DNA of 64,000 nt from Chloroflexota bacterium (lineage in GTDB: Bacteria > Chloroflexota > UBA11872), in contig OZ244806.1 in assembly GCA_965220075.1 (NCBI GenBank), positions 392,332 to 456,331 on the forward strand, in the 5' to 3' direction. The notes beneath the pieces are model-generated. The model was not told where the DNA came from, did no database searches, and was given only the letters and a program-made list of their open reading frames with translations. Both the position numbers and the translations under genes were made by a program. The first letter of the stretch is position 1. Every line of letters begins with the position of its first letter. Below are positions 8,581-60,680 of the stretch, piece after piece.

Positions 8581-8581
8581 G

Positions 8582-10348: not shown

Positions 10349-10443
10349 CTCGGTCACCCCGTCACCCCGGCGGGTTCCCATCCATCCGTACTGCCAAGCA
10401 CCCCCACGCGCCGCTATAGTCGGAGGTACATACGGAGTAGCCG

Positions 10444-11202: not shown

Positions 11203-11305
11203 GGACCGCCGTTGGCGGGCGGCGGCGGCGGCTCCACCGCACGTCGCTTTTCCCCGCTCTGTGCATAATGGCGTTGCTCTGACCGCCAGCGCTTGACGGG
11301 AAGTT

Positions 11306-11998: not shown

Positions 11999-12003
11999 GT
12001 CAG

Positions 12004-12075
12004 GCCGCGCTCGGCTGCGCGCCTCGGCCGGCTTCCACGCGGAGCCGGCCACCCCCGCGGACGGCCGAGCGTGGC
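12004..12075. other. Long imperfect stem-loop downstream of second LiaF-like gene
   Basis: Outer GCCGCGCTCGGC/GCCGAGCGTGGC and inner GGCCGGCTTC/GGAGCCGGCC arms. Confidence 0.5.
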
Positions 12076-12081
12076 AGGTCT

Positions 12082-12173
12082 CCGTCGTTCCGGCGACAAG
12101 CCTGTCCCATGCTCGATACGGGGTCTCATACGTGCGGGGACGGACCTGGACCCGGCTTTCGCCGGGCTGGCGG
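12082..12173. repeat. Degenerate inverted pair of CGTC-type palindromic repeats with ~25-bp cassette in the first loop
   Basis: CCGTCGTTCCGGCG-[AAGCCTGTCCCATGCTCGATACGG]...CTGGACCCGGCTTTCGCCGGGCTGGCGG; same layout at 60681-60836. Confidence 0.65.
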
Positions 12174-22339: not shown

Positions 22340-22555
22340 CGGTAAAGGCCGGGCGACGTGCAGGCCTTCAGCGGCGCGCGCCAACAGGCCGGAGCCGACC
22401 TGGGCATCTTCACCTGCTTCGAGCGGCGCGTGACGCCGCGGATGCGCGACGCGGCGGCCAGCGCCGGACGGTTTATGGGAGTGCCGGTGCGGCAGATCTA
22501 CACGGTCGAAGACTACTTCGCGGCACGGCGGCCCGTGCTCCCGACGGTGGCCTGA
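22340..22555 (+). pseudogene. Remnant resembling the C-terminus of an Mrr-like restriction endonuclease domain
   Basis: GDVQAFSGARQQAGADLGIFTCF..VTPRMRDAAASAGRF..QIYTVEDY resembles tails of methylase/Mrr-domain fusion proteins; the upstream portion is absent. Confidence 0.55.
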
Positions 22556-24018
22556 TGGTTGATCGCGGCGGCGTGCAGGATTGCAGGCGACCCATAGCCA
22601 CTAACCTTCTGGATCGATGGCACGTGGTATGGGCCGGGCGTCTGTTGCTTCTGGGCCTGGTGGCGTTCTGGTGGGGCGGATACGTCATACCCCATCTCTT
22701 CAGTCTGGTATTCCCCGAACTGCTACCGATCAGCGCCCTCCCCGCGCACCTCGACCCTGATTGGGAGGGGGCCGTTGCGAACAAGGTCTCCGCCGCCGCC
22801 TTTGCTTTAGTAGCGCTTCTGGCACTCATAAACAACATCCTCAGCCGTCTTCAGGCGGGTGGCCTGATCGTCGCTGGAGGCTGGGCCGTGTTGGCGGTGA
22901 CGGGCGCATTTCTTGCCTGGGCGGAGATAACCGACGCGCATAACGAGGCCCTGGGCATCGGGAAAGTGCTGTTCGGCCCGGGGAACGAGTATCACGTGCC
23001 CTGGCCCGTCTTGCTAGCCCCACTCATCATCGCGTTCATGGTCGCGATGGCGGTCTTTGTTCGCAGGGGGTTGCGTACCCCGGCAATCCGCACGCTCTTT
23101 ACCTTTGGCCTCATCGCCTGGCTGCTGGCCCCTTTGTATGACGCATGGTTCGAGAGCATTTTCCATTACCAAGAACCGGATACACGAATGCAACTGGGCG
23201 CGCTGCTCGAAGAGACGCTGGAGTTCGGCGGAACCCTGCTGATCGGCTGCGGTGCGGCGATCGCCTTGTGGGGCTTCACGGGATCACGGCCACTGTCCGG
23301 TGTGTTTGTTAGGCGCTGGCGCTGGTCGCTCATCGGGTCACTAGCCACCGTCGCCGTGCTTGGCGGTCTTGTGATCGCGTTCGTGTTCCATCCGCCTCTC
23401 GTTGATGCGCACACACCCACTCACATCGGCACCTTTCAGGTAACTCTCAGCGACCGGGGGGCCGTCACGCAGGAGCTCCACGTGCCTGCGGGAGTACTCG
23501 AGAAGATCAGCCTCCGGCTCGCTAATCGGGACCCAGGCGGCAACGCAGGAACCGTGATATGGCGTGTTATGGAGGGAGGAAGGTGGGGCGACATCCTGCG
23601 CGAAGGACGCCTAGATGTCGCCGCAAGGGACGGTCTGAGCTGGGAGAGCATTTTCTTTGTCCCGCCGATGATCATCGGGGCCGAAGGTCAGCGAATGGCC
23701 CTGCAGTTGGAAGCCGCCCTCGATCAACGGGCAAGCCTCCATATTGGCGCGACAAAGCTCGATCGGTACGAGGACGGTCGGCTCTGGGTCAACGAAGCGC
23801 AGGCGTGGCGGGATCAGGACCTTGAGTTCGTCGCCTATGCCGCGCCGGAGCTAACGCGCAACAAGCTGCGGGCGATCTGGCACCTTCTGACATCCGACTG
23901 GCGCTGGCCGGCACTGATGGCGAACCTGGCCTTCGAACTGACAATCATCACGCTGATCCCGGTCTTGCTGATTGGGACTGTGCTACCACGGCGTGACCGG
24001 CGCCATATGTCCTGCTGA
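22555..24018 (+). CDS. Hypothetical polytopic membrane protein with extracytoplasmic beta-rich domain
   Basis: 487-aa ORF, about 7 TM helices, LLEETLEFGG, soluble domain, C-terminal TM; codon usage visibly less GC-rich than neighbours. Confidence 0.75.
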   Translation: MVDRGGVQDCRRPIATNLLDRWHVVWAGRLLLLGLVAFWWGGYVIPHLFSLVFPELLPISALPAHLDPDWEGAVANKVSAAAFALVALLALINNILSRLQAGGLIVAGGWAVLAVTGAFLAWAEITDAHNEALGIGKVLFGPGNEYHVPWPVLLAPLIIAFMVAMAVFVRRGLRTPAIRTLFTFGLIAWLLAPLYDAWFESIFHYQEPDTRMQLGALLEETLEFGGTLLIGCGAAIALWGFTGSRPLSGVFVRRWRWSLIGSLATVAVLGGLVIAFVFHPPLVDAHTPTHIGTFQVTLSDRGAVTQELHVPAGVLEKISLRLANRDPGGNAGTVIWRVMEGGRWGDILREGRLDVAARDGLSWESIFFVPPMIIGAEGQRMALQLEAALDQRASLHIGATKLDRYEDGRLWVNEAQAWRDQDLEFVAYAAPELTRNKLRAIWHLLTSDWRWPALMANLAFELTIITLIPVLLIGTVLPRRDRRHMSC

Positions 24019-24493: not shown

Positions 24494-24541
24494 GCCGGCC
24501 TCCGGGCCCTTTTCAGGTGAATTGCCCGCGTGAGGGAGGAC

Positions 24542-25849
<1,308 letters not shown>

Positions 25850-25954
25850 GAGTGACTCCTGCTTGTCGCGTTCAGGCGGCCGCTGGACGTGCGCCCGCCC
25901 GACGGCGCGGATCGCACCGCCCGCCGCGCTCGAGGCGGCGCTGCCTGGACGCGC

Positions 25955-28456: not shown

Positions 28457-29293
28457 GTGTTTGTTGCCACAAAATTCCCAACCAATTTAGCCCATCGAGT
28501 CGCCTCCGCGGCGCGTGAGCTGGCCGCCTACGGCGACCTCCTGCGCAACCTGGTAGCGCGCGACCTCAAGCTGCGCTACCGCGGCTCGGCGCTCGGTTTT
28601 GCCTGGTCGCTGCTGAACCCCTTGCTCATGACGGGGGTGTTCACGATCGTCTTCGGCGTCCTCTCTAAGAGCGAGATCGAACGCTACCCGCTGTTCCTGA
28701 TGGCCGCGCTGGTGCCCTGGCTCTTCACCCAGCACGCGCTGACGGCCGCCATGCGCAGCGTGACCTCCAACGCCCAGCTCATCAAGAAAGTGTACTTCCC
28801 GCGTGAGCTGCTGCCGGTCAGCGCCGTGCTGGCCAGCTTCGTCAACTTCCTGCTGGCCTACGGCGTCTTCTGGATCATCGGCCTGATATTCGGCGTCGGC
28901 AACACGCGCGCCATGGCCTTCGTGCCCCTCGTAATGCTGCTGCACCTGGCTCTGATAATGGGCCTGGCGCTCATCCTGGCCACCGCCAACGTCTTCTTTC
29001 GCGACACCGAGCACCTGGTGGAGATCGGCCTGCTGGCCTGGTTTTTCCTCACGCCCATCTTCTACAAGATGGACATCGTTCCCAACAACACGTTTCTCGG
29101 TCTCGACGTTCACCGCTGGGTCTTCTCGCTCAACCCCATGGCTACGCTCGTGACCGACTATCGCTATGCCGTGATGTCGGGCGACTTTCCCATCAGGCAC
29201 ACCATGGTCACCGTCGCCACCGCGCTGATAGCGGTCTCCGTCGGCTGGTATCTGTTCCGCCGCTTCGCGCCACGCTTCGCCGAGGAGCTCTAG
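28457..29293 (+). CDS. wzm: Polysaccharide ABC transporter permease (start approximate)
   Basis: RDLKLRYRGSALGFAWSLLNPLL, LIKKVYFPRE, FFRD, FFLTPIFY, LNPM, FAEEL. Confidence 0.95.
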   Translation: MFVATKFPTNLAHRVASAARELAAYGDLLRNLVARDLKLRYRGSALGFAWSLLNPLLMTGVFTIVFGVLSKSEIERYPLFLMAALVPWLFTQHALTAAMRSVTSNAQLIKKVYFPRELLPVSAVLASFVNFLLAYGVFWIIGLIFGVGNTRAMAFVPLVMLLHLALIMGLALILATANVFFRDTEHLVEIGLLAWFFLTPIFYKMDIVPNNTFLGLDVHRWVFSLNPMATLVTDYRYAVMSGDFPIRHTMVTVATALIAVSVGWYLFRRFAPRFAEEL

Positions 29294-29294: not shown

Positions 29295-31004
29295 GTGACC
29301 GCGCCCGCCATCGAGCTGCGCGGCGTGCGCAAGCGTTTCGTCATCCGCCACGCCGCGGCGCGCTCGCTGCAGGGCACCCTGCTGGCCTTCCTGGGCCGCC
29401 GCGACATCCGGCACGAGGAGTTCTGGGCGCTGGACGGAGTGGACCTCACGGTTCCGCGCGGCGAGACCTTGGGCATTATTGGACCTAACGGCTCCGGCAA
29501 GACCACCGTCCTCAAGCTGCTGGCGCGCACCATCCAGCCCACTTCCGGCGCCATCCACACGGGCGGCAAGGTGTTCGGTTTGCTGGAGCTGGGCGCCGGC
29601 ATGCACCCCGATCTGACCGGCCGCGAGAACATCTTTCTCAACGGGGCGTTCCTGGGCCTGCGGCGCCGCACGATTCAGGATCTCTACGACCGCATCGTCG
29701 ACTTCGCCGAGCTGCACCAGTTCATCGACACGCCGGTCAAGCACTACTCGTCCGGCATGTTCATGCGCCTCGGCTTCGCGATCGCGCTCAACGTCGATCC
29801 CGACATTTTGCTCATCGACGAGGCGCTGGCGGTCGGCGACGCGCGCTTCACGGCCAAGTGCTACGCGGCGCTCTCCGAGGTCAAGCGCAAGGGACGCACC
29901 ATCGTCTTCGTCTCGCACGACCCCATCCAGGTGCGGCGCTTTTGCGACCGCGTGCTCTGGCTGGACGCCGGGCGGGCGCGCATGCTGGGCGACCCGCGCG
30001 AGATCATTCAGGCCTACATTCGCAACATGCGTATCGAATCGGCGCCGGCCCAGCCCTTGCCTAGCCGCACTCCGGTCGCCGAGGGTTCCGGCGAGGCGCG
30101 CATTCGAGCCGCTCTCCTGCTCGACGAAGATGGAAGGACGGAGCGCCACGACTGTCTGCCCGGCGGCCACGCTCTCCTGCGGCTGGAGTTGGAAACGGAC
30201 CGCTATATCGAGGACGTGGTGGTGGGGTTCGGGCTGCGCCGCAGCGACGGGCTGCTCGTGTGGGAGTCATCCACCGCCTCCACGATCGGCCCCGTGGAGC
30301 TCATGCCCGGGCGCACGCAGATCGATTGCCGGCTGGGGCCGTTGCCCTTGGGCGCCGGCGCCTATCACGTCTCGCTGGGCGCCTGGCCCGCCAGCGACCG
30401 CATGCGGCCGTTCCACGTCTGGCCCAACGCGCTCTCGCTGTTCGTGGCGCGCGCCGCCGGCACGCAGCGCGGAAGCGCGGTGGTGCCCGCGCAGTGGCGC
30501 GTGAGCGCCTCCGCCGCGCACGCCCCGCTCGAGTCCGCCCGCGATCCGGTGCCCCAGCCCGACATGGTCACCGTCGACGGTGGTCCCATCTGGTCGCCGC
30601 CGCCCGACCGCATCACGATCGGCGACAAGGATGACGAGTGGCTGGGCGCCGGCTGGTATCCGCCCGAGGATTGGCCGCCGCACGTGCGCTGGACCACCGA
30701 TAGCGCCCGCGCTTACGTCACCCAAGGCGTTGGCCAGGGCGCTCTTGTGCTCTCCGTTTGCCGCCCTCTTCATGCAGCGCACCCGGTCGCGGCCCACGTC
30801 CGCATCGACGGCAAGCGCGTCGCCACTTTCCGCGTGCACGGGATGGATTTCGAGGACGTGGTCGTCCCGCTCGATCCGGTCGACGCGCCCAGCGCGCTGC
30901 AAGTGACCATCGAGGTAGACGAGGCCCTCGTGCCGGCCGCCGTTGGGCTGGACGACGACACCCGCAGGCTCGGACTGGCGGTTCGCTCCATCCGGGTGGA
31001 ATGA
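29295..31004 (+). CDS. wzt: Polysaccharide ABC transporter ATPase with Wzt_C domain and an extra C-terminal beta-sandwich-like domain
   Basis: GPNGSGKT, YSSGM, LLIDEALAVGD, VSH; Wzt_C-like region; extra GWY..E..RWT...D.RRLGLAV domain. Confidence 0.95.
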   Translation: MTAPAIELRGVRKRFVIRHAAARSLQGTLLAFLGRRDIRHEEFWALDGVDLTVPRGETLGIIGPNGSGKTTVLKLLARTIQPTSGAIHTGGKVFGLLELGAGMHPDLTGRENIFLNGAFLGLRRRTIQDLYDRIVDFAELHQFIDTPVKHYSSGMFMRLGFAIALNVDPDILLIDEALAVGDARFTAKCYAALSEVKRKGRTIVFVSHDPIQVRRFCDRVLWLDAGRARMLGDPREIIQAYIRNMRIESAPAQPLPSRTPVAEGSGEARIRAALLLDEDGRTERHDCLPGGHALLRLELETDRYIEDVVVGFGLRRSDGLLVWESSTASTIGPVELMPGRTQIDCRLGPLPLGAGAYHVSLGAWPASDRMRPFHVWPNALSLFVARAAGTQRGSAVVPAQWRVSASAAHAPLESARDPVPQPDMVTVDGGPIWSPPPDRITIGDKDDEWLGAGWYPPEDWPPHVRWTTDSARAYVTQGVGQGALVLSVCRPLHAAHPVAAHVRIDGKRVATFRVHGMDFEDVVVPLDPVDAPSALQVTIEVDEALVPAAVGLDDDTRRLGLAVRSIRVE

Positions 31005-32443
31005 CGCCCGCGCCGCGCGCGGGCAAACCGCGCCCCGCCGGTCGTCGCGCGCCGCCGAGCGCCGCCGCCGAGCTGCCGCCGGTGCGCGTGGTCATCCTGA
31101 ACTACAACGGGGCCGGATTTATCGAGCCCTGCCTGGCCGCGGCGCTGCAGACGGACTACCCGCATGTCGAGCTCGTGGTCGTGGACAACGCCTCGACGGA
31201 CGGCTCGCCGGACTCGGTGCGGCGTGAGTTCCCCCAGGTCACGCTGGTCGAGGCCGGCGCCAACATTGGCTTCGCGCGCGGCAACAACCTGGCTCTGCGC
31301 GGCGCCCAGTGCCCCTACGTGGCCTTGCTCAATCCCGACACACGTGTGTCGCCGGACTGGCTGCGGCCTCTCGTAGAGCGTCTCCAGGCGGACCCGCTGA
31401 CCGCCGGCGTCGGCCCCAAGATTCTCTTCGACCGTGACCGCGTGGCCGTGCGGCTCACTAGCGAGACTTTCCGTCCGCACGGCGCTGACGCGCGCGAGCT
31501 GGGCGCCCGCGTCTATGCCGCACGGCTGGCGCCGCCCGCCCGCGCCGGCGCGGTGGCGTTCAATCAGGGCGTCTTTGGCCTCGAAACCGATAGCGCCGGC
31601 CGCCCGTTTCGCTGGATGAGCGGTCGGGCCGAGCTGGCTGTTCCGGTTGCCGAGGGTCCTACTCGACTCGAGCTTGAGATGAGCGCCGGCGACGGGCGCT
31701 GCGCGGTTCCCTTCGAGGCCGCGGTCGACGGGACGCCGTTGCTGCGCACCCGTTTGAACGCGCCCAATACGTCGATTGAAATCGAGATTCCGGCCAGCCT
31801 GGCGGCGCGCGCGCGGCGTCCCGTGGTGGAGAACGCCGGCATCGCGCCCCTGCCGGACGGGTCCATGCGCGACAGGGGCACGCGCGTCTCCCAGGGCAAC
31901 GTCTGGCACGAGTGGGACGGCGGCCCGTTCGACCGCCCCGGTGAGGTGTTCGCGGTCAAGGGCGGCGCCGCGCTCTACCGCAGTGCCATGCTCGAGTCGC
32001 TCGACTACCTCGACCCCGGGTTCTTCATGTACTACGAGGACGCTGACCTATGCTGGCGTGCGCGCCGGCGCGGCTGGCGCTTCTGGTATGAGCCGGCGGC
32101 CGTGGTACGGCACTCGCGCGCCGCGCTGAGCGGCGAATGGTCGCCCGCGTTCATCCGCAACGTGGAGTCGGGAATGCTGCGCATGCTTGGCAAGAACGCG
32201 CCGCTCGCCTGGATGGGGCGGCAGGCGCTGCGCGCGGCCAGGGAGAGCGTTGACGGCCTTCTCCAGGCGGGCGGCGCGCGGCTGCGCGGACAGCCCGCCG
32301 ACTCGGGCGCCGCCGCCGCGCGTGCGGCCGCGCTGGCGCGCGTGGGACGCCAGTGGAGCGACATCAGGCGCCTGCGCCGGGTCGAGCGAGAGCTGGCGCC
32401 GCTCGACGGCCGCGAGCTCGTGCCCTTTGTGGAGGCCCCATGA
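31001..32443 (+). CDS. GT2 glycosyltransferase with ~130-aa inserted domain
   Basis: VVILNYNG, VVVDNASTDGS, NIGFARGNN, LLNPD, FFMYYEDADLCWR; insertion between PKI and ENAG; ATGA overlap with wzt. Confidence 0.92.
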   Translation: MTPAPRAGKPRPAGRRAPPSAAAELPPVRVVILNYNGAGFIEPCLAAALQTDYPHVELVVVDNASTDGSPDSVRREFPQVTLVEAGANIGFARGNNLALRGAQCPYVALLNPDTRVSPDWLRPLVERLQADPLTAGVGPKILFDRDRVAVRLTSETFRPHGADARELGARVYAARLAPPARAGAVAFNQGVFGLETDSAGRPFRWMSGRAELAVPVAEGPTRLELEMSAGDGRCAVPFEAAVDGTPLLRTRLNAPNTSIEIEIPASLAARARRPVVENAGIAPLPDGSMRDRGTRVSQGNVWHEWDGGPFDRPGEVFAVKGGAALYRSAMLESLDYLDPGFFMYYEDADLCWRARRRGWRFWYEPAAVVRHSRAALSGEWSPAFIRNVESGMLRMLGKNAPLAWMGRQALRAARESVDGLLQAGGARLRGQPADSGAAAARAAALARVGRQWSDIRRLRRVERELAPLDGRELVPFVEAP

Positions 32444-34023
32444 GGGCGGCCGTATACAACCGCTGGCTGCATCAACGCGGCGGCGGCGAGCGTCACGCGG
32501 CCATGGCCGCGGCGGTCCTGGCCGAGCGCTTTCAAACCGAGCTGGTCACCCATCGCGCCATCTCGCGCGAGGCCCTGCAGGCGGCCCTCAACATCGATCT
32601 GTCGGCGGTGAACATCCGCGTGATCCCGGCGCTGCCGCCCAATCGATTCAGTTCCTTCACGCGCGCCTACGACCTTTTCGTCAACTCCTCTTTCATGACC
32701 AGCCAGCCTTCCGCCGCGCGCCGCGGCATGCTGCTGGTCCTCTTCCCCTCGCCCGTCGACCGCGGCTGGGCGGCGCGGCTGCGCCAGGCGGTTGGGCGCC
32801 TGCTCATCCGCGAGTTCCTGCTGCCCGAATGGACCGACGGCTTCTACGACGTCCAGGAGCTCGGCCGCGGCTGGTTCCGCTACACGACCGACCGCGCCAC
32901 CGTGAGCCTGCGCGTGCCGCCGGGCCGGCGCTCCGTGCCCGTCGACATCGTGGCCGGCAACTTTCGCCCCGAGGGGGACCTACGCGTGCGCTGCCGAGTC
33001 GGCGAGCACCCGGTCGGTGAGAGAGATTTCCCCCCGACGCCGGGCAATTTCGTGACCTGGCGTCTGGAGCTCGACCGGAAGTGGATCAGCAACCGCAGCG
33101 TCGAGCTCACCCTCGAGTCCCCCACCTTCAACCCCTCCGAGGGGATCGGCCGCGCTGACGACAACCGCGAAGTGGGCCTGGCGGTCACCGACGTCCGCAT
33201 CCCCCACCCGCGCCGCTACCTGCACGAGCTGCTGTTCCGCCGCGTGTTCCGCGAGCTGGGCCTGCGGCTCGAAGGACTGCCCACCCACTACAGCCTGGAG
33301 CACCTCGGCACCTACGACCTGATCTGCCCCATCTCCGAGTTCAGCCGGAACTGGATGCGCGAGTACTGGAGCAAGGACGGACCGCTGCTCTACCCGCCCG
33401 TCGACACCAGCGGGGCTGAGTCTCGCCCCAAGCAGCGCATCATCCTGGGGGTCGGTCGATTCTTCCGCGGCAGCCACGAGAAGAAGCACGGCGAGATGAT
33501 CAAGCAGTTCGTGCAGATGGTGCGTGAGGGTCTGCGCGGCTGGACGCTGCACCTGGCCGGCCACCAGAGCGGGCGCGATATCGACCTGGACTACACCGCG
33601 GAGCTGCGCCGCCGCGCGCACGGCCATCCCATCGAGATTCACGTAGACATGGACTTCGAGCGGCTGCGGCGGCTCTACGCCGACGCCAGCATCTACTGGC
33701 ACGCGGCCGGCTTCGGCGAGCGCGTCACGCGCAACCCGGTGAGGTTCGAGCACTTCGGCATCACCGTGGTGGAGGCCATGGCCAGCGCCGCCGTGCCCAT
33801 CGTGCTCGATCAGGGCGGGCTGCCGGAGTTGGTCACGAATGGCGTGGACGGTTTCCATTGGTCCACGCCGCGGCAATTGCGCGCCCGCACCTGGGAGCTG
33901 GTGCGCGATCCGGCCCGACGCGAGCACATGGCCGCGGCCGCGCGCGCGTCCAGCGAGAAGTTCAACGTGCCCGCGTTTCGCGCGCGCCTCAACGAGTTGG
34001 TCGACAGCCTTGGATTCGCCTAG
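32440..34023 (+). CDS. GT4 glycosyltransferase with inserted beta-sandwich-like domain
   Basis: GGGERH, SEFS, LYPPVD, VGRFF, EHFGITVVEAM, GGLPELV; ATGA overlap with GT2. Confidence 0.92.
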   Translation: MRAAVYNRWLHQRGGGERHAAMAAAVLAERFQTELVTHRAISREALQAALNIDLSAVNIRVIPALPPNRFSSFTRAYDLFVNSSFMTSQPSAARRGMLLVLFPSPVDRGWAARLRQAVGRLLIREFLLPEWTDGFYDVQELGRGWFRYTTDRATVSLRVPPGRRSVPVDIVAGNFRPEGDLRVRCRVGEHPVGERDFPPTPGNFVTWRLELDRKWISNRSVELTLESPTFNPSEGIGRADDNREVGLAVTDVRIPHPRRYLHELLFRRVFRELGLRLEGLPTHYSLEHLGTYDLICPISEFSRNWMREYWSKDGPLLYPPVDTSGAESRPKQRIILGVGRFFRGSHEKKHGEMIKQFVQMVREGLRGWTLHLAGHQSGRDIDLDYTAELRRRAHGHPIEIHVDMDFERLRRLYADASIYWHAAGFGERVTRNPVRFEHFGITVVEAMASAAVPIVLDQGGLPELVTNGVDGFHWSTPRQLRARTWELVRDPARREHMAAAARASSEKFNVPAFRARLNELVDSLGFA

Positions 34024-34068: not shown

Positions 34069-36321
34069 GTGCAAATGACTGTCGCGCGGCGTCCGCTGGG
34101 CTGGCTGGCGGCGCGTCCGGCGCTCGCGCTCTTCCTGTTTCTGGTGACCCTCTACGCGCTGGCGGCCGGCGTGAGCCGCAATAGCTTCGGCTACAGCGCC
34201 GACGGCACCTTCGCCTTCGAGATGGCCAAGAGCGCCGTGGTGGACCCCGAGCACGCCTACATCCGCGACCATCACCGCAACTTCTCGCGCTGGGGGCTTG
34301 GTCTGCCGCTCCTGCTCGCGCCGGTGGCGGCCTTCGCCGAGCCCATCGCCGCGGCCGCCCCTCAGCGCGACCGCATCCCCATCGGCGATCACGATCTGCT
34401 GCTCGTGCGCTTTCCACCGGTCGGCCGCGGCGCGCTGGCCGAGGCCGTTTCCGAGCTCGATCTCAACATCCAGCCGGGCCGCTACGCGACCATCGCGCTG
34501 CTCTCACACACCGGATTGAGCGCCGAGCTCGAGCAGGGCGCCGAGGTGGCGCGGCTGGTCATCACCGACGCCGACGGCCGCCTGATCGAGCGCCCCATCC
34601 GGGCCGGTATCGAGACCGCCGAGTGGGCCTACGACCGCGCCGAGGTGCGCGCCGTCGTCCGCCACGAGCGGCCCGAGCCGGTGGCCAAGCACATCGGCAA
34701 CCTGCGCGCCAACTATTACCTGGCGCGCTGGGAGTTCGATCCGCCGGTCGACCTGGCCTCCGCCCGCGTCTACTACCGCGCTCCGGTGGGAGACCTCTAC
34801 GTGGACGGGATCGCAATGCGGCGGCCCGATGGCGCCTGGCTCGATGGACCGGGGGTCGGCCGCGTCTGGTCGGAGCGTCAGAACGTCGAGTTCTTCCGCC
34901 GTCTGTGGGCGCCGCTCGTCAATGTCATAGCCACCGCGCTGGGTGCCGTCATCCTGTTCCAGATCGTGCGCCGGCTCGGCTACGCGGAGCGCGCCGCTCT
35001 GTTGGTCGCGCTGGCCTACGGCCTGGGGTCCATGGCGTGGCCCTACGCAAAGCTCGATTTCAGCGAGCCGATCGTCACCACCGCGCTGCTGGGTGTGGTC
35101 TGGGCGCTCCTTCTCCAGCGCCACACCGGCCTCGTGCGCTTCGCCGCGCTGGCCGGTCTCGTGGCGGTGTTCGCGGTTTTCACCAAGTACGTAACCGCCA
35201 TCGCGCTGCCTCCGCTCGCTATCTACGTCATCGTCCAGCACAAGCCGGGCCGCTCATGGCGGCAGACCTGGCAGGCGGCCCGCCGCCCCCTGCTGGCTTT
35301 CCTCCTGCCGTTTCTGGTGCTGGCGCCGCTGGTTCTGCTGGTGGCCGCGCTGGCCTTCGACATGCGGCTGCTATACGAGCGGGAGCTCATCGGCGGGCTG
35401 CAGCGTGACTGGCTGGAGCTGCCCTTCCTGCTCGGCTTCCACGGGCTCGTCACCAGCTGGGGCAAGGGGGTGCTCTGGTACAACCCGGTGCTCCTGCTGG
35501 CAATTCCCGCCATACCCTGGTTCATCCACCGGCACGGCTGGCGATCCCTGATATTCCTGGCCGTGCCCATCGTCTATCTGGCCCTCTACAGCAAGAAACC
35601 GGTCTGGTACGGCGGCAACGCCTGGGGTCCCCGTTACCTCGTGCCCACTCTGCCGTTCCTGATCGTCATGGGCGCGCCTCTGGCCGCCTGGGCCGTCGAG
35701 CGCGCTCGACGGCTCCTCCCGCGGCTGGCCCTGGCGGCGCTCCTGCTGGCCAGCGTGGGCGTTCAGTTCATGGGCGTCAGCAAGGACTTCATCGGCTACC
35801 TGAATCTCTTCCAGTTCCAGGTGGCCGGCCTGGTGTCCGAGAATGGCGCGATCTATGGCGGCGCTGAGTACCAGCGCTGGTCGTCCATCCAGCCGGAAGG
35901 CGACTTCGCGGCGGTTCTCTACGCCCATCAGTTCTCGCCCCTGCTGGCGCATGCCTGGCTGCTGCGCGCGGACGCGGTCAATCTCTTCGCGCCCGACCGC
36001 ACCGACCTCCTCGAGGACGCGCTCTACCGCTCGCCCTGGTCGCGGTTCGGCATCGACGCGCCGCCGCGCAGACCGGAGGCCGGCTTAGGACTCGACTTCT
36101 GGTCGATGACTCTGGCGGAGAGCTTCCTGGCCTACCCGTGGCTGGTGTTTTGGATCGCCGCCGCCCTGCTGGGCCTGCAAGCCCTCTCGCTGGGAGCGTG
36201 GGGGGTCGTGACGCGCCGCGTTCTGCGCGTTGGGGGCCGGTGGCGGCTCGTCCAGATGGTTCCGGTCGGCGCCTACGCCGCCGTGCTAGTAGTCTTTGAC
36301 ACTGCACATTTCATGCTCTAG
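34069..36321 (+). CDS. GT-C-like (PMT-related) integral membrane glycosyltransferase with inserted extracytoplasmic domain
   Basis: TM1 then SADG; WPYAKLDFSEP, GKGVLWYNP, WYGGNAWGPRYLVP; soluble insertion including RAGIETAEWAY. Confidence 0.7.
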   Translation: MQMTVARRPLGWLAARPALALFLFLVTLYALAAGVSRNSFGYSADGTFAFEMAKSAVVDPEHAYIRDHHRNFSRWGLGLPLLLAPVAAFAEPIAAAAPQRDRIPIGDHDLLLVRFPPVGRGALAEAVSELDLNIQPGRYATIALLSHTGLSAELEQGAEVARLVITDADGRLIERPIRAGIETAEWAYDRAEVRAVVRHERPEPVAKHIGNLRANYYLARWEFDPPVDLASARVYYRAPVGDLYVDGIAMRRPDGAWLDGPGVGRVWSERQNVEFFRRLWAPLVNVIATALGAVILFQIVRRLGYAERAALLVALAYGLGSMAWPYAKLDFSEPIVTTALLGVVWALLLQRHTGLVRFAALAGLVAVFAVFTKYVTAIALPPLAIYVIVQHKPGRSWRQTWQAARRPLLAFLLPFLVLAPLVLLVAALAFDMRLLYERELIGGLQRDWLELPFLLGFHGLVTSWGKGVLWYNPVLLLAIPAIPWFIHRHGWRSLIFLAVPIVYLALYSKKPVWYGGNAWGPRYLVPTLPFLIVMGAPLAAWAVERARRLLPRLALAALLLASVGVQFMGVSKDFIGYLNLFQFQVAGLVSENGAIYGGAEYQRWSSIQPEGDFAAVLYAHQFSPLLAHAWLLRADAVNLFAPDRTDLLEDALYRSPWSRFGIDAPPRRPEAGLGLDFWSMTLAESFLAYPWLVFWIAAALLGLQALSLGAWGVVTRRVLRVGGRWRLVQMVPVGAYAAVLVVFDTAHFML

Positions 36322-36340: not shown

Positions 36341-36562
36341 ATGTCAGAAACCCCTCCCGGCGAGCTCATCCCGGCCGACTTCCTCGCGATCCTGCGCTGC
36401 GTGAACGACGCTCATCCGCGCGACGACGGCACGCTGCGCACCCGGGGCAGCCTGCTGGTGTGCACCGTCTGCGGCTACGGCTACATGGTTGACGACGGCA
36501 TTCCCAACATGCTGTGGGATGAAGCTCTGACTCCGGAGCAAGTAGAGAGCGCTGGCGCGTGA
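36341..36562 (+). CDS. Trm112-like (YcaR-type) small protein
   Basis: FLAILRC...L...LVCTVCGYGYMVDDGIPNMLWDEA; GTGA overlap with radical SAM gene. Confidence 0.85.
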   Translation: MSETPPGELIPADFLAILRCVNDAHPRDDGTLRTRGSLLVCTVCGYGYMVDDGIPNMLWDEALTPEQVESAGA

Positions 36563-37659
36563 ACACCGTCGGTCAGGCGAAGGACCTCATATTCAAGTTC
36601 CGCCGCCACCGCGCGGTGGCTCATCCACGCCTGTTCCGCTTCGCCTACCACTGGATGAAGGGCACGCAGAGTCCGCCCTACGGCCCGCTCAAGCTCCACA
36701 TCGAGCCGACCAGCTTCTGCAATCTCCGCTGCCCCATGTGTCCGCAGAGCATCGGCGCCAACGAGACCAACGGGTTCATGGAGATGGACCTCTACGACAA
36801 GATCGTCGACGAAGCCCGCCACTTCGCGCGCGAGTTCAACCTGTTCTTCCGCGGCGAGTCGCTCATGCACCAGGGCATCTACGAGATGATCGAGAAGTGC
36901 GAGCGGGCCGGGATCGCCGCGCACATCAATACCAACGCCACCCTGTGGCGCGACGAGGCCATAGACAAGCTGCTCGACGCGCGCCCCTCCAAAGTGACCA
37001 TCAGCTTCGACTCGGGCGACCCGACCACCTACGAGCAGATGCGTGCGGGCGCCCGGTACGACCTCACCCTGGAGCGCGTGCTGCGCTTCCTGTCGGAGAA
37101 GAAACGCCGCGGCCTGCGCAAGCCATACGTGGTCATGCAGGTGATCCAGCTATGGGACAAGACCTTCGCGGTCGGCGCCAAACCGACTATTCCGGCCGAC
37201 TTTCGAAGCCTCTTCGACGGTCTGCCCGTGGACGAATGGGACACTTTTTGGGCGCACGGCTGGGCGGGCACGATGGACGACTCCGCGTTCTACAACGCGC
37301 GCCCCCACGGGTCCGTCTACTTCCCCTGCAACTGGCTGTGGAAGTCGATGGCCGTCTATTGGGACGGCCGTGTGCCGTCCTGCTGCGCCGACTTCGCCGA
37401 AGACCAGATCATGGGCGACCTCAATCAGCAATCGCTGCTGGAGATTTGGGACAGCGAGCCTTACCGGGAAATCCGGCGCGCGCACGTGGCCGGAGACTTG
37501 AGCGACTACAAGCTGTGCAGGGGCTGCGACGCTGTCTGGCAGCACGACACAAACGCCTGGAAGGGATTCGCCGGCGCGCGCACGCTTGTCACCCGCGACC
37601 CATTGCCGGTCCTGCAAGAGCGCCGGCCGGCCGAGCCGGCGGCAAACGCCCCCGACTAG
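36559..37659 (+). CDS. Radical SAM enzyme with SPASM/twitch domain
   Basis: IEPTSFCNLRCPMC, GE, NTNAT, ISFDS, PCNWLW..YWDG.V.SCCAD..LLEIW..LCRGC. Confidence 0.93.
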   Translation: MNTVGQAKDLIFKFRRHRAVAHPRLFRFAYHWMKGTQSPPYGPLKLHIEPTSFCNLRCPMCPQSIGANETNGFMEMDLYDKIVDEARHFAREFNLFFRGESLMHQGIYEMIEKCERAGIAAHINTNATLWRDEAIDKLLDARPSKVTISFDSGDPTTYEQMRAGARYDLTLERVLRFLSEKKRRGLRKPYVVMQVIQLWDKTFAVGAKPTIPADFRSLFDGLPVDEWDTFWAHGWAGTMDDSAFYNARPHGSVYFPCNWLWKSMAVYWDGRVPSCCADFAEDQIMGDLNQQSLLEIWDSEPYREIRRAHVAGDLSDYKLCRGCDAVWQHDTNAWKGFAGARTLVTRDPLPVLQERRPAEPAANAPD

Positions 37660-43957: not shown

Positions 43958-45154
43958 GTGCGTCTAGTCTTCGTCGCCAACGCACGTATCCCCAGTGAGA
44001 TGGCGCACCCGCTGCAGATCATGCACATGGCGGCCGCCTTCGCCGGATTGGGGTACAGCGTGCGCCTGATCTACCCGCGCCGCGCCAACACTGCGGCCAT
44101 GAGCTCCGTGCGCGACCCGTTTGCCTACTTTGGAGTCAGGCGCCGCTTTGGCCTGGTGGGTCTGCCCTCGATCGACTTCATCAAGCGCGTAACTGTGGAT
44201 TGGCGCTGGCTCCGCCGCCGGCCTTTTCCTCGCATCGCGCAACTCATCCAGCTCTGGAGCTTCGCGCCTTGGGTGCTCGCACTCGCGCCGCGCCTCCGTC
44301 CGGAGATCGTCTACGGCCGCGACCTGCTGCCCCTCACGCTGCTCCGTGTCGTCATGCGTTCCAGGGTGCGCTTCGGTTTCGAAGCGCACACCACGCCGGC
44401 GTCTCGGATGTCCCGCCGCTGGCACCTCTGGGCGGCGCGCCGCATGCACGGCATCGTGGTCATCACCGAAGGCCTGCGCCGCTGGTACCTGAGCGAGGGC
44501 GTGGCGCCGCACAAAGTGCTGACGGCCCCCGACGGCGTTGACCTCGCGGCGTTCGATTCGATCTCGCGCGCGCCGGCCCGCGCCGAGCTCGGCCTCGATC
44601 CGCGGGCGCCGATAGTGTGCTACCTGGGGCACCTGTACCCCTGGAAGGGCGTGGAAGTGCTCGTCGAGGCGGCGCGCGCGCTGCCGCCCGAGGCGCGCGT
44701 CTTCATCGTGGGCGGCATCTCGCCGGACCTAGAGCGGATCCGCGCGGCCGCCGCCGGGCTCTCCGCCGTCACCGTCACGGGGCATCTGCCGCCCGCGCGC
44801 GCCCGGCTTTACCTGGCCGCCTGCGACGCGGCGGTCATCCCGTTCACGGCTCGCGCGCTGATCGCGCGCGAGCACTCATCCCCGCTGAAGCTCTTCGAGT
44901 ACATGGCGGCGGGCTGCGCCATCGTCGCCAGCGACCTTCCCGCCCTGCGCGAGGTGCTGCGGCACGAGAGCAATGGCATCCTCGTCGCGCCCGACGATCC
45001 GGCGGCGCTCGCGCGCGGTATCACGCGGGTCTTGCGCGATGATGAGCTGGCCGTGCGCATTCGGCGTGCGGCGCGAGCGGAGGCTGAGTCCTTCACATGG
45101 GAGCGGCGAGCCGCATCCATCATCGAGTTCCTGAAGCCGCGCTCGACGGCCTGA
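43958..45154 (+). CDS. GT4 glycosyltransferase
   Basis: ANARIPSEMAH, PDGVD, YLGHLYPWKGV, SSPLKLFEYMAAG; AGGAG SD. Confidence 0.92.
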   Translation: MRLVFVANARIPSEMAHPLQIMHMAAAFAGLGYSVRLIYPRRANTAAMSSVRDPFAYFGVRRRFGLVGLPSIDFIKRVTVDWRWLRRRPFPRIAQLIQLWSFAPWVLALAPRLRPEIVYGRDLLPLTLLRVVMRSRVRFGFEAHTTPASRMSRRWHLWAARRMHGIVVITEGLRRWYLSEGVAPHKVLTAPDGVDLAAFDSISRAPARAELGLDPRAPIVCYLGHLYPWKGVEVLVEAARALPPEARVFIVGGISPDLERIRAAAAGLSAVTVTGHLPPARARLYLAACDAAVIPFTARALIAREHSSPLKLFEYMAAGCAIVASDLPALREVLRHESNGILVAPDDPAALARGITRVLRDDELAVRIRRAARAEAESFTWERRAASIIEFLKPRSTA

Positions 45155-47724
45155 GCCGCCTGCTCGAGCCCGGCGTTGGGGTTCTGCAGCGCGCCGACCG
45201 CGCGGGCGCCGGAGCGCATCGCGCGCTGGTTGCGCTCGGACTCCTGCTGCCGCTTGCGGTGCTCTACCGCCAGCAGCTGTTCGCGGGCGCAGGATGGCTC
45301 GACACCGACTTCCTCGTCTTGCACCAGCCTCGCTACGCGCTGCTGGCGGACGGCCTGGCCGAGGGCCGTATCCCGCTCTGGATAGAGAACCTGCTGGGCG
45401 GGTTCCCAACGCCGTTCTCCGAGTTCGGCTGGTTCTATCCGCTCACCTGGGCGCTCGCCTGGCTGCTGGGGCCTTTGCGCGGCTACATAGTCGAGGTGGC
45501 GCTGGGCGTCACGCTCGCGGCCGCCGCCGCCTACTGGCTGGGCCGCGTGTGGGGGCTCTCGCGGCTGGCCGCCTTTCTGGCCGCTTTTCTGTTCGCCTAC
45601 GGCCCCTTCTTCTTCGCTACCTCCAAGATCGTCAACTACGTCGACATCTTCTTTGCGCTGCCCGCGGGCATTGCCGCTATCGAGCTGATCGCGCGCGGAC
45701 GCCGGCGCTATGCGGCTCTGCTGGCCGCCACAGCCGGGGTCATGGCCATCGCCGGGCATCCACAGATCGCGTTTCTCTTCGGGTTTGTGTGGGCCGTGTT
45801 CGGGCTCGTGCGCGCCGTCTGGGAGTGGCGGAGCGGGAGCCGACGGCCGGCGCTGGGGCTGGTCGCATGGCTGCTGGCCTCCGCGTGCGTAGGCGTGGGG
45901 CTGGCCGCCGTGCGTCTGCTCCCCACCATTGCGGTCGCCGCCGATTCGACCCGCGGCGGCGGCCTGGACTTCAGCGCGGCCGCGCAGGACTCGCTGGCGC
46001 CCTGGAGCCTCGTGCTTGGCTACCTGTTCCCCGCCTTCGAGATCCCGCGTGTGCTGGGCGACACCCTCAACGCCGAAGAGCTCATGTATTTGGGAATCCT
46101 TACCCCCGTGCTGGCTCTGCTGGCCGTTCTCTTCAACCGCCGCAGCCGCCTGGTGCAATTCCTGGCCGTCTTGGTCGTGTTCTCCTGGATCATCGCCTTG
46201 GGGTCCTACAGCCTCGGTTTCCCGCTCCTTCACAAGCTCCCGCTGTTCAACCTCTTCCGCGCGCCCTCGCGTTTCGGGATGATCGCTTCGTTCGGGCTGG
46301 CCTTCCTGGTCGGCATGGGTTTGGACACGCTGCGCGGCGCCGACCTGCGCGGCTCGCTGGCGTTCCGCTGGATTTCACGCGGCTGGATCTGGCTGGCCGG
46401 ACTGATGGCGGCCGCGGCCATCGCCTGCACCATCGCCATAAGCGGCTTCGCCTTTCTGATCAGGCCCTACGGTTACGACTACATCGACCGCGTGATAGTC
46501 GGCTCGGAGGGACGTTTCCTCACCGCGGAGCGCTACTACCGCACCTTCGATCAGCTCTACGCGCGCCTGGAGTCGGCTTTCAGCCTGGTCGAGTGGGCGC
46601 CGCGCCTGACGGTGATCGCGGCGCTCCTGAGCGCCCTCGTGATCTGGCGCTACGCGCGCGGACGGCTAGGCGTCCGCCCGGCGCAGTGGGCCTTTGCGGC
46701 CGTGCTGGTGGGCGACGTGCTGGTGGCGCCGGGCCACGCCGCCCACACCGTCCCTACCGATTGGCACGCGCGCGAGCCTCAGCTGTCGAGTCTCGTCGGC
46801 GACGGCGGCGCGGGTCGCTGGAGAGTCTTTTCCTACCGCGGGCTGGCCCAGAAGTTCGAGCTTTCCACCGCTACCGGCACGCGTCTGGCGCGCCCGCAGC
46901 GCGATCTGCTCGAGTACGTCTTCCTCAACCAGTCGCTCTCGCCCAATCTCTCGCTCAGCCACGACCTGGCGTCCCTGGACGGCTATGAGAACCTCATGCC
47001 GCGCGCCACGGCCGAGTATCTGGCCTACGTGGGCAGCGAGCGCGCCACCGTAGCCGGCTTTGCGCGCGACTCGAGCCTTGACGCCGCGGAGCGTCAGTCC
47101 ATTCTGGCGGCGCGCGTGCACGCGCTGGCCGCCGCCAATGTTCGCTACGTCACCTCCGGCATCCCGCTCGACGTGCCAACTTTGCGCGAGGTGGAGAGCC
47201 GCTCCATCGACTTGCCCGCATGGGCCGGCGTCGAACAGCCGCTCTACTTCTACGAAGTGGAGGGCTGGCGGCCGCGCGTCTACGTGGTGCGCGGCTGGCG
47301 CCTGGCCAGCGGCGCGCGGACCATCGCGGCGCAGCTCGACGCCCTGCGCGGCGCGCCCGAGCGCGTCATCGTCGACCGCGATCCGGGCTTGACCATCCCG
47401 ACCGCGGCCGGCGCCCCCGATTCGATCGGCCCGCTGGTCGTGGGAGCGGAGCGCGCGTCGGTTGAGGTGGATATGGCCGCGCCCGGCCTCCTGGTGGTGA
47501 ACGAAGCGATGGCGCCCGGCTGGACCGCCCGCGTGGACGGGCGGCCGGCCGATCTGCTGACCGTGAACTTCATGATGCGGGGCGTGGCGCTGCAGAGCGG
47601 GCCGCACACTGTCGAGATGCGCTACGAGCCGCCCGGGTTCCGAACCGGCCTGCTTGTCACGCTGGTCGCTTTGGGGCTGGTCGCCGCGCTGCTCGCGGCC
47701 GGCCTGTGGGCGGAGCGGCGGTGA
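45097..47724 (+). CDS. YfhO-like GT-C membrane protein (start uncertain)
   Basis: GRIPLW..LLGGFP..FYP, AGHPQ, YLG, FRAPSRF, C-terminal E...PGWTARVDG..NFMMRGVAL..G.H.V..RYEP plus terminal TM. Confidence 0.85.
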   Translation: MGAASRIHHRVPEAALDGLSRLLEPGVGVLQRADRAGAGAHRALVALGLLLPLAVLYRQQLFAGAGWLDTDFLVLHQPRYALLADGLAEGRIPLWIENLLGGFPTPFSEFGWFYPLTWALAWLLGPLRGYIVEVALGVTLAAAAAYWLGRVWGLSRLAAFLAAFLFAYGPFFFATSKIVNYVDIFFALPAGIAAIELIARGRRRYAALLAATAGVMAIAGHPQIAFLFGFVWAVFGLVRAVWEWRSGSRRPALGLVAWLLASACVGVGLAAVRLLPTIAVAADSTRGGGLDFSAAAQDSLAPWSLVLGYLFPAFEIPRVLGDTLNAEELMYLGILTPVLALLAVLFNRRSRLVQFLAVLVVFSWIIALGSYSLGFPLLHKLPLFNLFRAPSRFGMIASFGLAFLVGMGLDTLRGADLRGSLAFRWISRGWIWLAGLMAAAAIACTIAISGFAFLIRPYGYDYIDRVIVGSEGRFLTAERYYRTFDQLYARLESAFSLVEWAPRLTVIAALLSALVIWRYARGRLGVRPAQWAFAAVLVGDVLVAPGHAAHTVPTDWHAREPQLSSLVGDGGAGRWRVFSYRGLAQKFELSTATGTRLARPQRDLLEYVFLNQSLSPNLSLSHDLASLDGYENLMPRATAEYLAYVGSERATVAGFARDSSLDAAERQSILAARVHALAAANVRYVTSGIPLDVPTLREVESRSIDLPAWAGVEQPLYFYEVEGWRPRVYVVRGWRLASGARTIAAQLDALRGAPERVIVDRDPGLTIPTAAGAPDSIGPLVVGAERASVEVDMAAPGLLVVNEAMAPGWTARVDGRPADLLTVNFMMRGVALQSGPHTVEMRYEPPGFRTGLLVTLVALGLVAALLAAGLWAERR

Positions 47725-48926: not shown

Positions 48927-50408
48927 ATGACCCGGACCGCAGCGACGGCCGAGCCTTCGCCGACCGCGGATCTGGGTCAGCGCGCGGTGCGAGGCCTGGT
49001 CACGCTCGGCATGCGCGAGGGCGCGCTGAAGATGGTCGCCATCGTCGGCTTCATCGCGCTCTACCGCCTGCTGACGCCGGACGACTTCGGCATCATCCTG
49101 CCGATCGCTTTTCTGGCCGGCCTGGTCAAGCTGTTCGCGGACGTCGGCCTGCAGCCGAGTCTGATCCAGCGCGGCGCGGAGCCTACCGGAGACGACCTGC
49201 GCGCCGTGTTCACCGCCCAGTTGGCGCTGGCGGCGGCGGCGGTTCTCGTCGTTTTCTTTGCCGGCCCCGCCATGGTGAACGGGTTGCTGGACGCGGAGGC
49301 CGATCCCTGGATGATCCGCGCGTTCGCGCTCAGCATCTTCTTCTCGGCTTTCCGGCTGGTTCCCGCCGCTCTGCTCGAGCGTCATCTCCAGTTTGGACGT
49401 CTCGCCACGGCCGACATCTTGAGCACTCTTTGGTTCTACTGCGCCGGCATCGGATTCGCCATCGCGGCGTACGGTGTCTGGAGCCTCGTGATCGCCCACG
49501 TAGGCGCGAGCGTCGTTTCTACTTTGGCGGTGGTAATGCTGCGGCCCTGGCGCCCCCGGCCGACCTCGCGGCTGGCGGCGATCCGACCCTACGTCAACTT
49601 CGGCGCGCAGTTTCAGGGCTCGCGGCTCGCGCTGATCCTGAAGGACTCGCTGATCCCCATGTTCTCGCCGCGCGCGTTCGGCGTCACCACCACGGGCCAC
49701 CTCCACTGGGCCAACCGGCACGCCGCGTACCCGCTGGGCCTGACTCAGCTCGTAGCGCGCGTGAGCCTGCCCGCGTTCGCGCGAATTCAGGACGAGCCCG
49801 ACCGGGTGAGGCGCGGCGCCGAGCTCAGCCTGAAGTGGAACGCCATCGTCACCCTGCCCGTCTTCGCCGCCATCTTCGCCTTCGCGCCCGAGATCGCTAG
49901 CCACATCTACAGCGATGAATGGGTGCCCGCCGTGCCGGCGCTCTATCTGCTCGCCGTCAGCGCCCTGCTGGTGCCGGTGAACGGCCTCATCACCCCGATT
50001 CTCAACGCCCTGGGCAAGACCAGGCTGGTGCTGACCGTGGCCGTCATCTGGGCGGTCGCGGCCTGGCTGCTCACGTATCTGCTGACGCTGGCCGGACTGG
50101 AGCTGCTGGCGATTCCCGTCGCCCTGGCGGCAACGCAGATTCTGGCGGCGCTGGCCCTGCTGCCGCTCGCCTACCACAATTTCGGGCTGCGTCTCCTGCC
50201 GCACCTGGGCAAGCCGCTCTTAGCCGCGCTGGCGGCCGGAGCGTTCGGCCGCTTCGTTCTGCTTCCTCTCCTGACCGACGCCCTGCTGCTGATTCAAGGC
50301 GGCCTCGTGGTGGCCGTCGTGTACGGCGCGCTGCTCTACCTGGCCGACCGCCGCGCCATCCGGGCCGAGCTTGGAACGCTGGTCCGGCGCTTCGCTCTAC
50401 CCACATGA
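48927..50408 (+). CDS. wzx: Polysaccharide flippase (Wzx/PST family)
   Basis: RLLTPDDFG, D.GL..SLIQR, LER.LQF, YGVWSLV; about 12-14 TM helices. Confidence 0.88.
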   Translation: MTRTAATAEPSPTADLGQRAVRGLVTLGMREGALKMVAIVGFIALYRLLTPDDFGIILPIAFLAGLVKLFADVGLQPSLIQRGAEPTGDDLRAVFTAQLALAAAAVLVVFFAGPAMVNGLLDAEADPWMIRAFALSIFFSAFRLVPAALLERHLQFGRLATADILSTLWFYCAGIGFAIAAYGVWSLVIAHVGASVVSTLAVVMLRPWRPRPTSRLAAIRPYVNFGAQFQGSRLALILKDSLIPMFSPRAFGVTTTGHLHWANRHAAYPLGLTQLVARVSLPAFARIQDEPDRVRRGAELSLKWNAIVTLPVFAAIFAFAPEIASHIYSDEWVPAVPALYLLAVSALLVPVNGLITPILNALGKTRLVLTVAVIWAVAAWLLTYLLTLAGLELLAIPVALAATQILAALALLPLAYHNFGLRLLPHLGKPLLAALAAGAFGRFVLLPLLTDALLLIQGGLVVAVVYGALLYLADRRAIRAELGTLVRRFALPT

Positions 50409-56893: not shown

Positions 56894-56997
56894 GACCCGA
56901 CCCGATGGTCGATACGAAGAGGTTGCCTGGAGTCCCCGGCCCATCGCGGCGGGTGCCCGAGGTTGTCCGACAGGACTCGCGTAAGCGCCGCCCCGCA

Positions 56998-57036
56998 TAT
57001 AATCCCGCTAGCGCGCCGTCGTTGCGCGCTTTTTTT
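56998..57036 (+). promoter_or_regulatory. TATAAT followed by intrinsic-terminator-like hairpin with U-tract
   Basis: TATAAT 56998-57003; GCGCGC-CGTCGTT-GCGCGC 57011-57029 followed by T7 (57030-57036); epimerase ATG at 57050. Confidence 0.55.
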
Positions 57037-60670: not shown

Positions 60671-60680
60671 GTCTTTCCCC

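Follow-up and report, generated by a model that had tools for sequence, protein, structure and literature searches.

A jelly-roll module common to the exporter and two glycosyltransferases of a Chloroflexota glycan operon, circularly permuted in one of them

The 64,000-nucleotide stretch of Chloroflexota DNA analysed here (contig OZ244806.1, referred to below as the window) has a G+C content of ~70% and carries at 28.5-37.7 kb a row of plus-strand genes encoding Wzm, Wzt, a glycosyltransferase of family 2 (GT2), a glycosyltransferase of family 4 (GT4), a GT-C membrane glycosyltransferase and a radical S-adenosylmethionine (SAM) protein. Wzt, GT2 and GT4 each hold one copy of the same ~125-aa domain, confirming what a first-pass annotation had proposed from the sequence alone. 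In Wzt the domain is fused to the C-terminus, in GT4 it is inserted collinearly within a GT-B lobe and in GT2 it is inserted in circularly permuted form within a GT-A loop, such that a single domain has been built into its hosts in three modes. The domain family is already known as an uncharacterised Pfam domain of unknown function (DUF), while its pathway-wide distribution, the two insertional forms and the circular permutation are new.

A domain shared by Wzt, GT2 and GT4

The genes are an ATP-binding cassette (ABC) transporter-dependent glycan assembly operon, Wzm-Wzt-GT2-GT4, followed by the GT-C and radical SAM genes, with hallmarks of Wzm/Wzt-type assembly in the form of an adjacent ABC-2 permease, a nucleotide-binding domain (NBD) carrying Wzt_C and cytoplasmic glycosyltransferases. 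The features on which the argument turns are as follows.

~28520..29293 (start approximate; listed open reading frame from 28241), plus strand: Wzm, exporter ABC-2 permease; Pfam ABC2_membrane, E 1.2e-13
29295..31004, plus strand: Wzt, 569 aa; Pfam ABC_tran at residues 46-178, Wzt_C at 263-385
30606..31001, plus strand: module copy 1, collinear, at the C-terminus of Wzt; independent profile E 7e-28 and AlphaFold2 (AF2) model
31001..32443, plus strand: GT2 (GT-A fold) glycosyltransferase, 480 aa; Pfam Glycos_transf_2 at residues 30-145, Glyco_trans_2_3 at 310-370
31439..31822, plus strand: module copy 2, circularly permuted, in a loop of GT2 (residues 147-274); reversed split matches, doubling test and AF2 model
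32440..34023, plus strand: GT4 (GT-B fold) glycosyltransferase, 527 aa; Pfam Glycos_transf_1 at residues 329-502; 53 homologues
32794..33207, plus strand: module copy 3, collinear, in the N-terminal lobe of GT4 (residues 119-256); hhalign match to the Wzt module, independent profile E 3.6e-15

The Wzm stop lies 1 nt ahead of the Wzt start, while ATGA overlaps join Wzt to GT2 at 31001 and GT2 to GT4 at 32440; these overlaps and the module motifs quoted in the first-pass annotation were found where it had placed them. Within Wzt the NBD (residues ~46-242) and Wzt_C (263-385) are followed by a proline-rich linker (386-437) and then the extra module (438-569), an architecture common to 43 orthologues. 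The solved Aquifex aeolicus Wzt chain 8dku_A matches Wzt residues 35-380 (E 4.5e-70), and with the match ending at residue 380 the known architecture leaves the final ~190 residues uncovered. Wzt_C resembles the extra module in being a jelly-roll carried on Wzt, but the module is a separate second domain situated past the end of the solved A. aeolicus protein. The possibility that it is a duplicated Wzt_C was rejected, as hhalign against the Wzt_C region of the same Wzt family returned a probability of 1%. Pfam splits the GT2 catalytic fold into residues 26-151 and 310-370 and covers only the C-lobe of GT4 (329-502), with no Pfam or NCBIfam model covering Wzt 386-569, GT2 ~150-310 or GT4 ~1-328.

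Pairwise BLASTP between the three segments was marginal, the Wzt segment matching GT4 at E 0.002 over 35 aa, GT2 matching GT4 at E 0.091 and the Wzt segment matching GT2 at E 0.16. Profiles were then built for each segment from its orthologues (43 for Wzt, 53 for GT4 and 16 for GT2) and compared with hhalign, which aligned Wzt with GT4 over 116 collinear columns (96% probability, E 3.3e-9) and GT4 with GT2 over 82 columns (78% probability, E 1.9e-5). A second match between GT4 and GT2 (E 1e-3) paired the C-terminal motif of the GT4 copy with an upstream stretch of GT2. The direct comparison of Wzt with GT2 was weak (E 3.5e-3 and 1.4e-2), and the link between these two therefore runs via GT4 and the superfamily profile.

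Profiles from single orthologue sets each matched only their own gene in the genome, for which reason an iterated and an independent profile were used. The latter drew on 253 stretches of the domain from unrelated proteins in the database, contained neither window nor operon sequences and was searched at E<=10 against the 20,475 open reading frames (ORFs) of at least 80 aa in the window's own 3.1-Mb genome. It matched three of these, which are adjacent, namely Wzt (7e-28), GT4 (3.6e-15) and GT2 (4.7e-12), and the locally iterated profile, which does include window sequences, returned only the same three adjacent ORFs. A profile made from methyltransferase copies only matched Wzt at 2.6e-22 and GT4 weakly at 0.025, missing GT2 in the same genome ORF search. 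By profile search the module is absent from the ~10 other GT4 genes and the rest of a Wzx-type cluster at 38-59 kb of the window. The expectation that the module would be found in Wzt and neighbouring transferases, rather than scattered, is thus borne out within the genome. In all host proteins the same invariant residues recur, namely G..E, RW and D-x-R-x-LG.

The first-pass annotation had treated the three segments as alike, and while their homology stands, the GT2 copy is not collinear with the other two. In GT2 the D-x-R-x-LG motif (D163, R165, L167, G168) comes ahead of the G...E...RW motif (G190, E195, W205), with all seven residues invariant in 25 orthologues, and the independent profile matches GT2 in two pieces whose order is reversed. 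In a doubling test each GT2 insert was joined to a second copy of itself and searched with the independent profile. In each of the 25 orthologues the match, at first partial (profile positions ~20-107), now ran without a break over the junction (~20-145), with a gain of 7 to 31 bits, the window GT2 copy rising from 36.6 to 56.2 bits. The AF2 model of the whole GT2 (predicted local distance difference test, pLDDT, 89.6; predicted template modelling score, pTM, 0.87) places nine strands in residues 147-263, an all-beta region with pLDDT 86-97 in which the strand order, relative to the Wzt copy as modelled by AF2, is b8-b9 and then b1-b7. On the basis of the doubling test and the modelled strand order the GT2 copy is circularly permuted.

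The boundaries of the insert are given by a GT2 orthologue that lacks it. In locus L001 a GT2 that is 48% identical aligns to window residues 17-146 and 275-452 with five residues bridging the gap, and since 128 aa are replaced there by 5 aa, the insert corresponds to residues 147-274 and lies in a loop. This makes GT2 a natural and clean case of a domain inserted in circularly permuted form. In the same part of L001 (8618-11502), from a metagenome-assembled genome, the stop-to-stop frame of GT4 is 869 aa long and runs over the GT2 gene, which is read in a different frame. A further feature of the window GT2 is its C-terminal region of ~95 residues (~382-476, window 32144-32428), which consists of long helices with a conserved LAPLDGREL motif at the C-terminus and might be an oligomerisation or membrane-association region.

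Predicted fold, wider family and conservation

The Wzt copy was folded with A1, a 46-sequence alignment of collinear copies, and all fold comparisons refer to this copy. The AF2 model (pLDDT 94.7, pTM 0.88) is all-beta with nine strands, in keeping with the beta-sandwich-like domain of the first-pass annotation. Foldseek against the PDB gave 32 matches at E<=1e-3, headed by the carbohydrate-binding module (CBM) CBM6E (8j3x, 6e-5), CBM36 (1w0n), CBM35 (2w3j), CBM6 (1gmm) and BcsB. In a VIA-align structural search over 48,161 chains the best match was CBM22 (2w5f; Z 11.7, 115 aa aligned, root-mean-square deviation (rmsd) 2.6), with CBM35 (Z 10.7), CBM36 (10.1), the BcsB carbohydrate-binding domain (10.0) and CBM6 (9.5) also matched. 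CBM-type jelly-rolls superpose on 107-117 of the 132 residues with Z 9.5-11.7 and rmsd 2.5-3.1. The module is predicted by this model to be a beta-jelly-roll with the fold of CBM6/22/35/36, and as such may bind carbohydrate. While the top structural matches to the full Wzt module are CBM6/22/35/36 (107-117 residues, Foldseek E to 6e-5), identity to them is 6-14% and there is no membership at the sequence level. Known CBMs, moreover, sit on secreted glycoside hydrolases, whereas the window copies are on cytoplasmic biosynthetic proteins. The description of the module as aromatic-rich does not hold, the aromatic fraction being just 0.06-0.09; the modules are acidic with a median isoelectric point of 4.9-6.1.

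The module belongs to a large superfamily, the A1 profile matching 12,511 representative clusters at E<=1e-3, of which 2,365 pass E<=1e-10 and 78 pass E<=1e-30; many hold 2-8 tandem copies. Among the best 150 representatives 91 were put through a Pfam scan, of which 25 came from the E<=1e-3 level and 66 from the E<=1e-5 level, the latter taken in rank order while skipping proteins shorter than 250 aa and ones exceeding a batch of 49,000 residues. The partner domains found in these 91 representatives were:

Wzy_C: 11
GT4-type: 10
methyltransferase: 8
ABC/Wzt: 6
GDSL/AlgX: 6
sulfatase (LtaS-like): 4
radical SAM: 4
PMT_2: 2
protein kinase: 1
no Pfam partner: 34

Simple hydropathy gave topologies in which a kinase is followed by one membrane helix and three modules, five membrane helices by a sulfatase domain and three modules, and a signal-like helix by a GDSL domain and two modules. 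The module is therefore extracytoplasmic in the kinase, sulfatase and GDSL proteins and cytoplasmic in Wzt, the glycosyltransferases and the methyltransferases. It follows that the module is not special to the Wzt-GT2-GT4 triplet, the superfamily being found on many glycan enzymes at both sides of the membrane. CBM60 matches were present in 3 representatives (P0122, P0141 and P0189), overlapping with the module stretch only in P0122. A precedent for the GT2 copy would be offered by CBM60, reportedly a circularly permuted form of CBM36.

The Pfam family closest to the module is DUF7024 (PF22895), which has no assigned function and whose name was not found in the literature searched. Its cut-off (24.4 bits) was passed by 10 of the 91 representatives in stretches that coincide or overlap with the module, the coincidence being full-length in 7 of the 10 (for example in P0187, 734-854 versus 735-853), and DUF7024 is annotated in 14% of members of the top protein-atlas cluster. 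Against membership, the three window proteins have no match to the Pfam model at E<=0.1, and DUF7024 matches 2 of 46 aligned modules with a best E of 0.14. The likeness thus resides in stretches shared by the wider relatives, while the window copies themselves miss the model. There is, however, a transitive link, in that a profile from unrelated representatives matches the three window ORFs, and judged by these profile matches the module is a divergent branch of DUF7024. As such the operon would provide a first functional context for the superfamily.

Across the phylum the Wzt copy used as query matched 47 of 401 genomes, with 25/25 in the window's own family, 4/11 in genus g7 and 0/5 in genus g5, while A1 as query matched 96 of 401, a tally in which G000 and the unpublished genome G038 are counted. 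The Wzt and GT4 module matches are separated by ~2 kb in every one of the 26 genomes of the window's family. A general search for related loci returned a single locus. Among 13 loci fetched with a module-bearing Wzt, module-bearing GT2 and GT4 genes adjoin it in 10, although the loci were picked via module matches and the synteny counts are not an unbiased sample. In L001 the module is on GT4 and not on GT2. A SAM methyltransferase with a C-terminal copy of the module is the next gene in 6 of the 10 loci and in L037-39; it is found neither in the window operon nor in the window's family. An additional GT2 with a C-terminal module occurs in one lineage. Downstream synteny extends to the GT-C gene in L033, L035, L037-39 and L048-51 and to the radical SAM gene in L033, L035 and L048-51, with pyrG flanking the operon in two families. 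The order Wzm-Wzt-GT2-GT4-(methyltransferase)-GT-C-radical SAM is thus conserved across several Chloroflexota families. In L035 an 883-aa fusion of a type I phosphodiesterase and a GT2 (7395-10043) lies between Wzt and the module-bearing GT2.

A different arrangement was seen in L040 and L041 (genomes G117 and G343, family f14), in which two to three adjacent PMT_2 and/or tetratricopeptide repeat (TPR) membrane proteins each end in a module. All 25 of 25 genomes of family f14 have A1 matches, and these loci make up a second kind of co-occurrence in neighbouring genes, one that is probably extracytoplasmic.

The three copies had been described as grafted onto the operon proteins, and while they do belong to one domain family, they are not each other's closest relatives. 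In module trees the GT4 copies form one group (FastTree 0.999; Shimodaira-Hasegawa-like approximate likelihood ratio test, SH-aLRT, 98) apart from the Wzt and methyltransferase copies, and constraining 36 operon copies to one clade was rejected (log-likelihood lower by 303; approximately unbiased test, p-AU, 1.7e-73). These values come from trees with few columns and long branches, with the group named after the first tree had been seen and with representatives that include Wzt- and methyltransferase-type proteins from other lineages. Recent copying within the operon was rejected on both the GT4 clade and the constraint test, a result which argues that the domain is old and was separately inherited.

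Proposed function and alternatives

The reading given in the first-pass annotation, a glycan-reading or docking module in a coupled synthesis-export complex, is supported in part, as regards the common domain family, the predicted fold of carbohydrate-binding jelly-rolls and the conserved co-occurrence in adjacent genes. Somewhat more likely than not, each copy binds the backbone of the operon's own polymer, thereby holding the nascent chain. This reading is drawn from the predicted fold, the company that the domain keeps and its use on both sides of the membrane, the last of which fits a ligand that is itself found on both sides, as a glycan is. Through the modules, transferases, terminator and exporter would all stay attached to one nascent lipid-linked chain, which could serve substrate targeting and processivity, and in Wzt the module would act as a second grip on the chain beyond the cap-reading Wzt_C. 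Each soluble cytoplasmic component would contribute one copy to this, at the C-terminus of Wzt, in the N-lobe of GT4, in the loop of GT2 and, where present, at the C-terminus of the methyltransferase. By analogy with known capping, the SAM methyltransferase of the relatives is probably a chain-capping terminator. Glycan binding is itself a matter of inference, as are the identity of the glycan and an influence of the module on processivity, hand-off or chain length.

Several known systems offer partial parallels. The ppGalNAc-transferases, which are the nearest solved folds to GT2, carry a lectin domain. Staphylococcus aureus TarS is described as a GT2 with tandem CBM-like domains that are tied to binding of the polymer and contribute to processivity, its intrinsic processivity being lowered on truncation (PMC5156392). 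Both systems resemble the present one in that a domain of sugar-binding type is found on a GT-A transferase whose substrate is a polymer. In TarS and the ppGalNAc-transferases, however, the extra domains are C-terminal and of other folds (CBM48/68-like and ricin-type), whereas here a permuted insert sits within the catalytic fold and, unlike in those systems, the same domain is also present on the partner GT4 and the exporter. The Wzt carbohydrate-binding domain is described as recognising a chemically capped chain end, the cap in A. aeolicus being a methylated sugar (PMC9445017). In ABC-transporter-dependent pathways polymerase and terminator normally form a complex with a coiled-coil ruler, and in a 2024 paper a CBM is noted in one terminator only, the predicted CBM of Klebsiella pneumoniae O7 ORF6 (PMC11231755). 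ORF6 is similar in being a biosynthetic protein, a terminator, of such a pathway with a predicted CBM. The ORF6 domain has an immunoglobulin-like fold, is confined to a single protein and operates together with a coiled-coil ruler, whereas here every soluble component carries the module.

The known coordination of polymerase, terminator and exporter is by protein-protein complexes with a coiled-coil ruler together with a cap-reading Wzt domain, while in this conserved Chloroflexota pathway one domain with a predicted CBM fold marks every soluble component, which offers a testable hypothesis of substrate-mediated coordination. Taken to its full extent, the nascent chain would be the scaffold of an assembly line, gathering the module-bearing transferases, the capping methyltransferase and the exporter in place of the proteobacterial coiled-coil ruler complexes, with competition for the chain setting its length and its hand-off to Wzt; in this extended form the proposal is doubtful.

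A number of observations weigh against a polymer-binding role. A shared fold alone does not show function, non-CBM jelly-rolls score nearly equally in VIA-align (reelin repeats Z 10.7, toxin domains 9.4-9.8) and a sequence search of the PDB with the module profile gave 0 matches at E<=10. The superfamily also occurs on protein kinase and radical SAM proteins. The conserved residues of the window copies are shared by the whole superfamily and may for that reason be structural rather than ligand-specific; they say nothing on which glycan would be bound. The GT2 of L001 is without the insert although the Wzt and GT4 of that locus keep their modules, making the module dispensable for the GT2 fold, and in L042 and L044, which have a module-bearing Wzt, the ~10 kb fetched contains no neighbouring gene with the module.

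One copy on each soluble pathway protein, encoded by translationally coupled genes, would also be expected of a docking module in which the copies bind one another or a common partner and so bring Wzt, GT2, GT4 and the methyltransferase together in one complex for synthesis and export, the second option raised in the first-pass annotation. In keeping with this, the trimer interface of TarS is reported to be formed by the CBM-like domains (PMC5156392), and polymerase-terminator complexes are given as the rule in ABC-transporter-dependent systems (PMC11231755). Yet other family members carry up to 8 copies in tandem or are extracytoplasmic enzymes, settings in which a code for docking in the cytoplasm would make no sense, the copies of one operon are mutually distant (the GT4 copies being a clade of their own with SH-aLRT 98 and a joint clade being rejected) and the GT2 insert is missing from one orthologous operon, that of L001, all of which render docking unlikely. 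It is more improbable still in absolute terms, indeed quite improbable, that the module is an anchor holding peripheral enzymes to the membrane or to the polyprenyl-(pyro)phosphate carrier, perhaps via a bound metal as in C2-type sandwiches. Most partners do have substrates that are lipid-linked or close to the membrane (Wzy_C, LtaS-like sulfatase, PMT_2, Wzt and the glycosyltransferases) and a site for metal or phosphate could be formed by the invariant E21, D118 and R120, but the modules are acidic overall, arguing weakly against simple electrostatic membrane binding, many family members are secreted multi-copy proteins, and no C2 or lipid-binding domain was present among the 50 VIA-align rows or the Foldseek matches listed.

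The L001 GT2 without a module would fit a domain that is an inert structural spacer or stabilising domain, free of ligand and kept by descent, as would the superfamily-wide conserved residues, which may be purely structural. Such inertness would sit poorly with the invariant motif residues in the insert of 25/25 GT2 orthologues, the retention of the module in 26/26 genomes of the window's family and the glycan enzymes that are its company in most representatives with any Pfam partner, and it is likewise considered quite improbable. The binding of the polymer backbone remains the preferred reading of the module.

Neighbouring genes

Immediately downstream of GT4 stand two genes whose products are without the module.

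34069..36321, plus strand: PMT_2-like GT-C membrane glycosyltransferase; Pfam PMT_2 E 1.5e-4, NCBIfam LA_3751/2 family
36559..37659, plus strand: radical SAM/SPASM protein; Pfam

PMT_2 and radical SAM proteins, which are operon neighbours here, occur as module fusions in the wider superfamily. Directly downstream lies the Wzx-type polysaccharide cluster (window 38486-60589) with its ~10 GT4 genes, which also includes the following.

45097-47724: YfhO-like membrane protein
48927-50408: Polysacc_synt_3 flippase
52611-53438: methyltransferase
56963-58024: epimerase/dehydratase
59177-60589: Bac_transf initiating transferase

Upstream of the operon (window 615-25855) are housekeeping genes comprising a MoxR/DUF58/VWA (Bat-like) cluster, a CCA-adding enzyme, carAB, a dihydroorotase-like gene and aspartate carbamoyltransferase, along with three ORFs of 441-571 aa that have no Pfam match (10417-12129 on the minus strand, 22555-24015 and 24530-25852). 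A gene for a LanC-like (lanthionine synthetase C-like) protein at 62234-63583 occupies the end of the window, after a 732-aa ORF (60658-62856) that likewise has no Pfam match.

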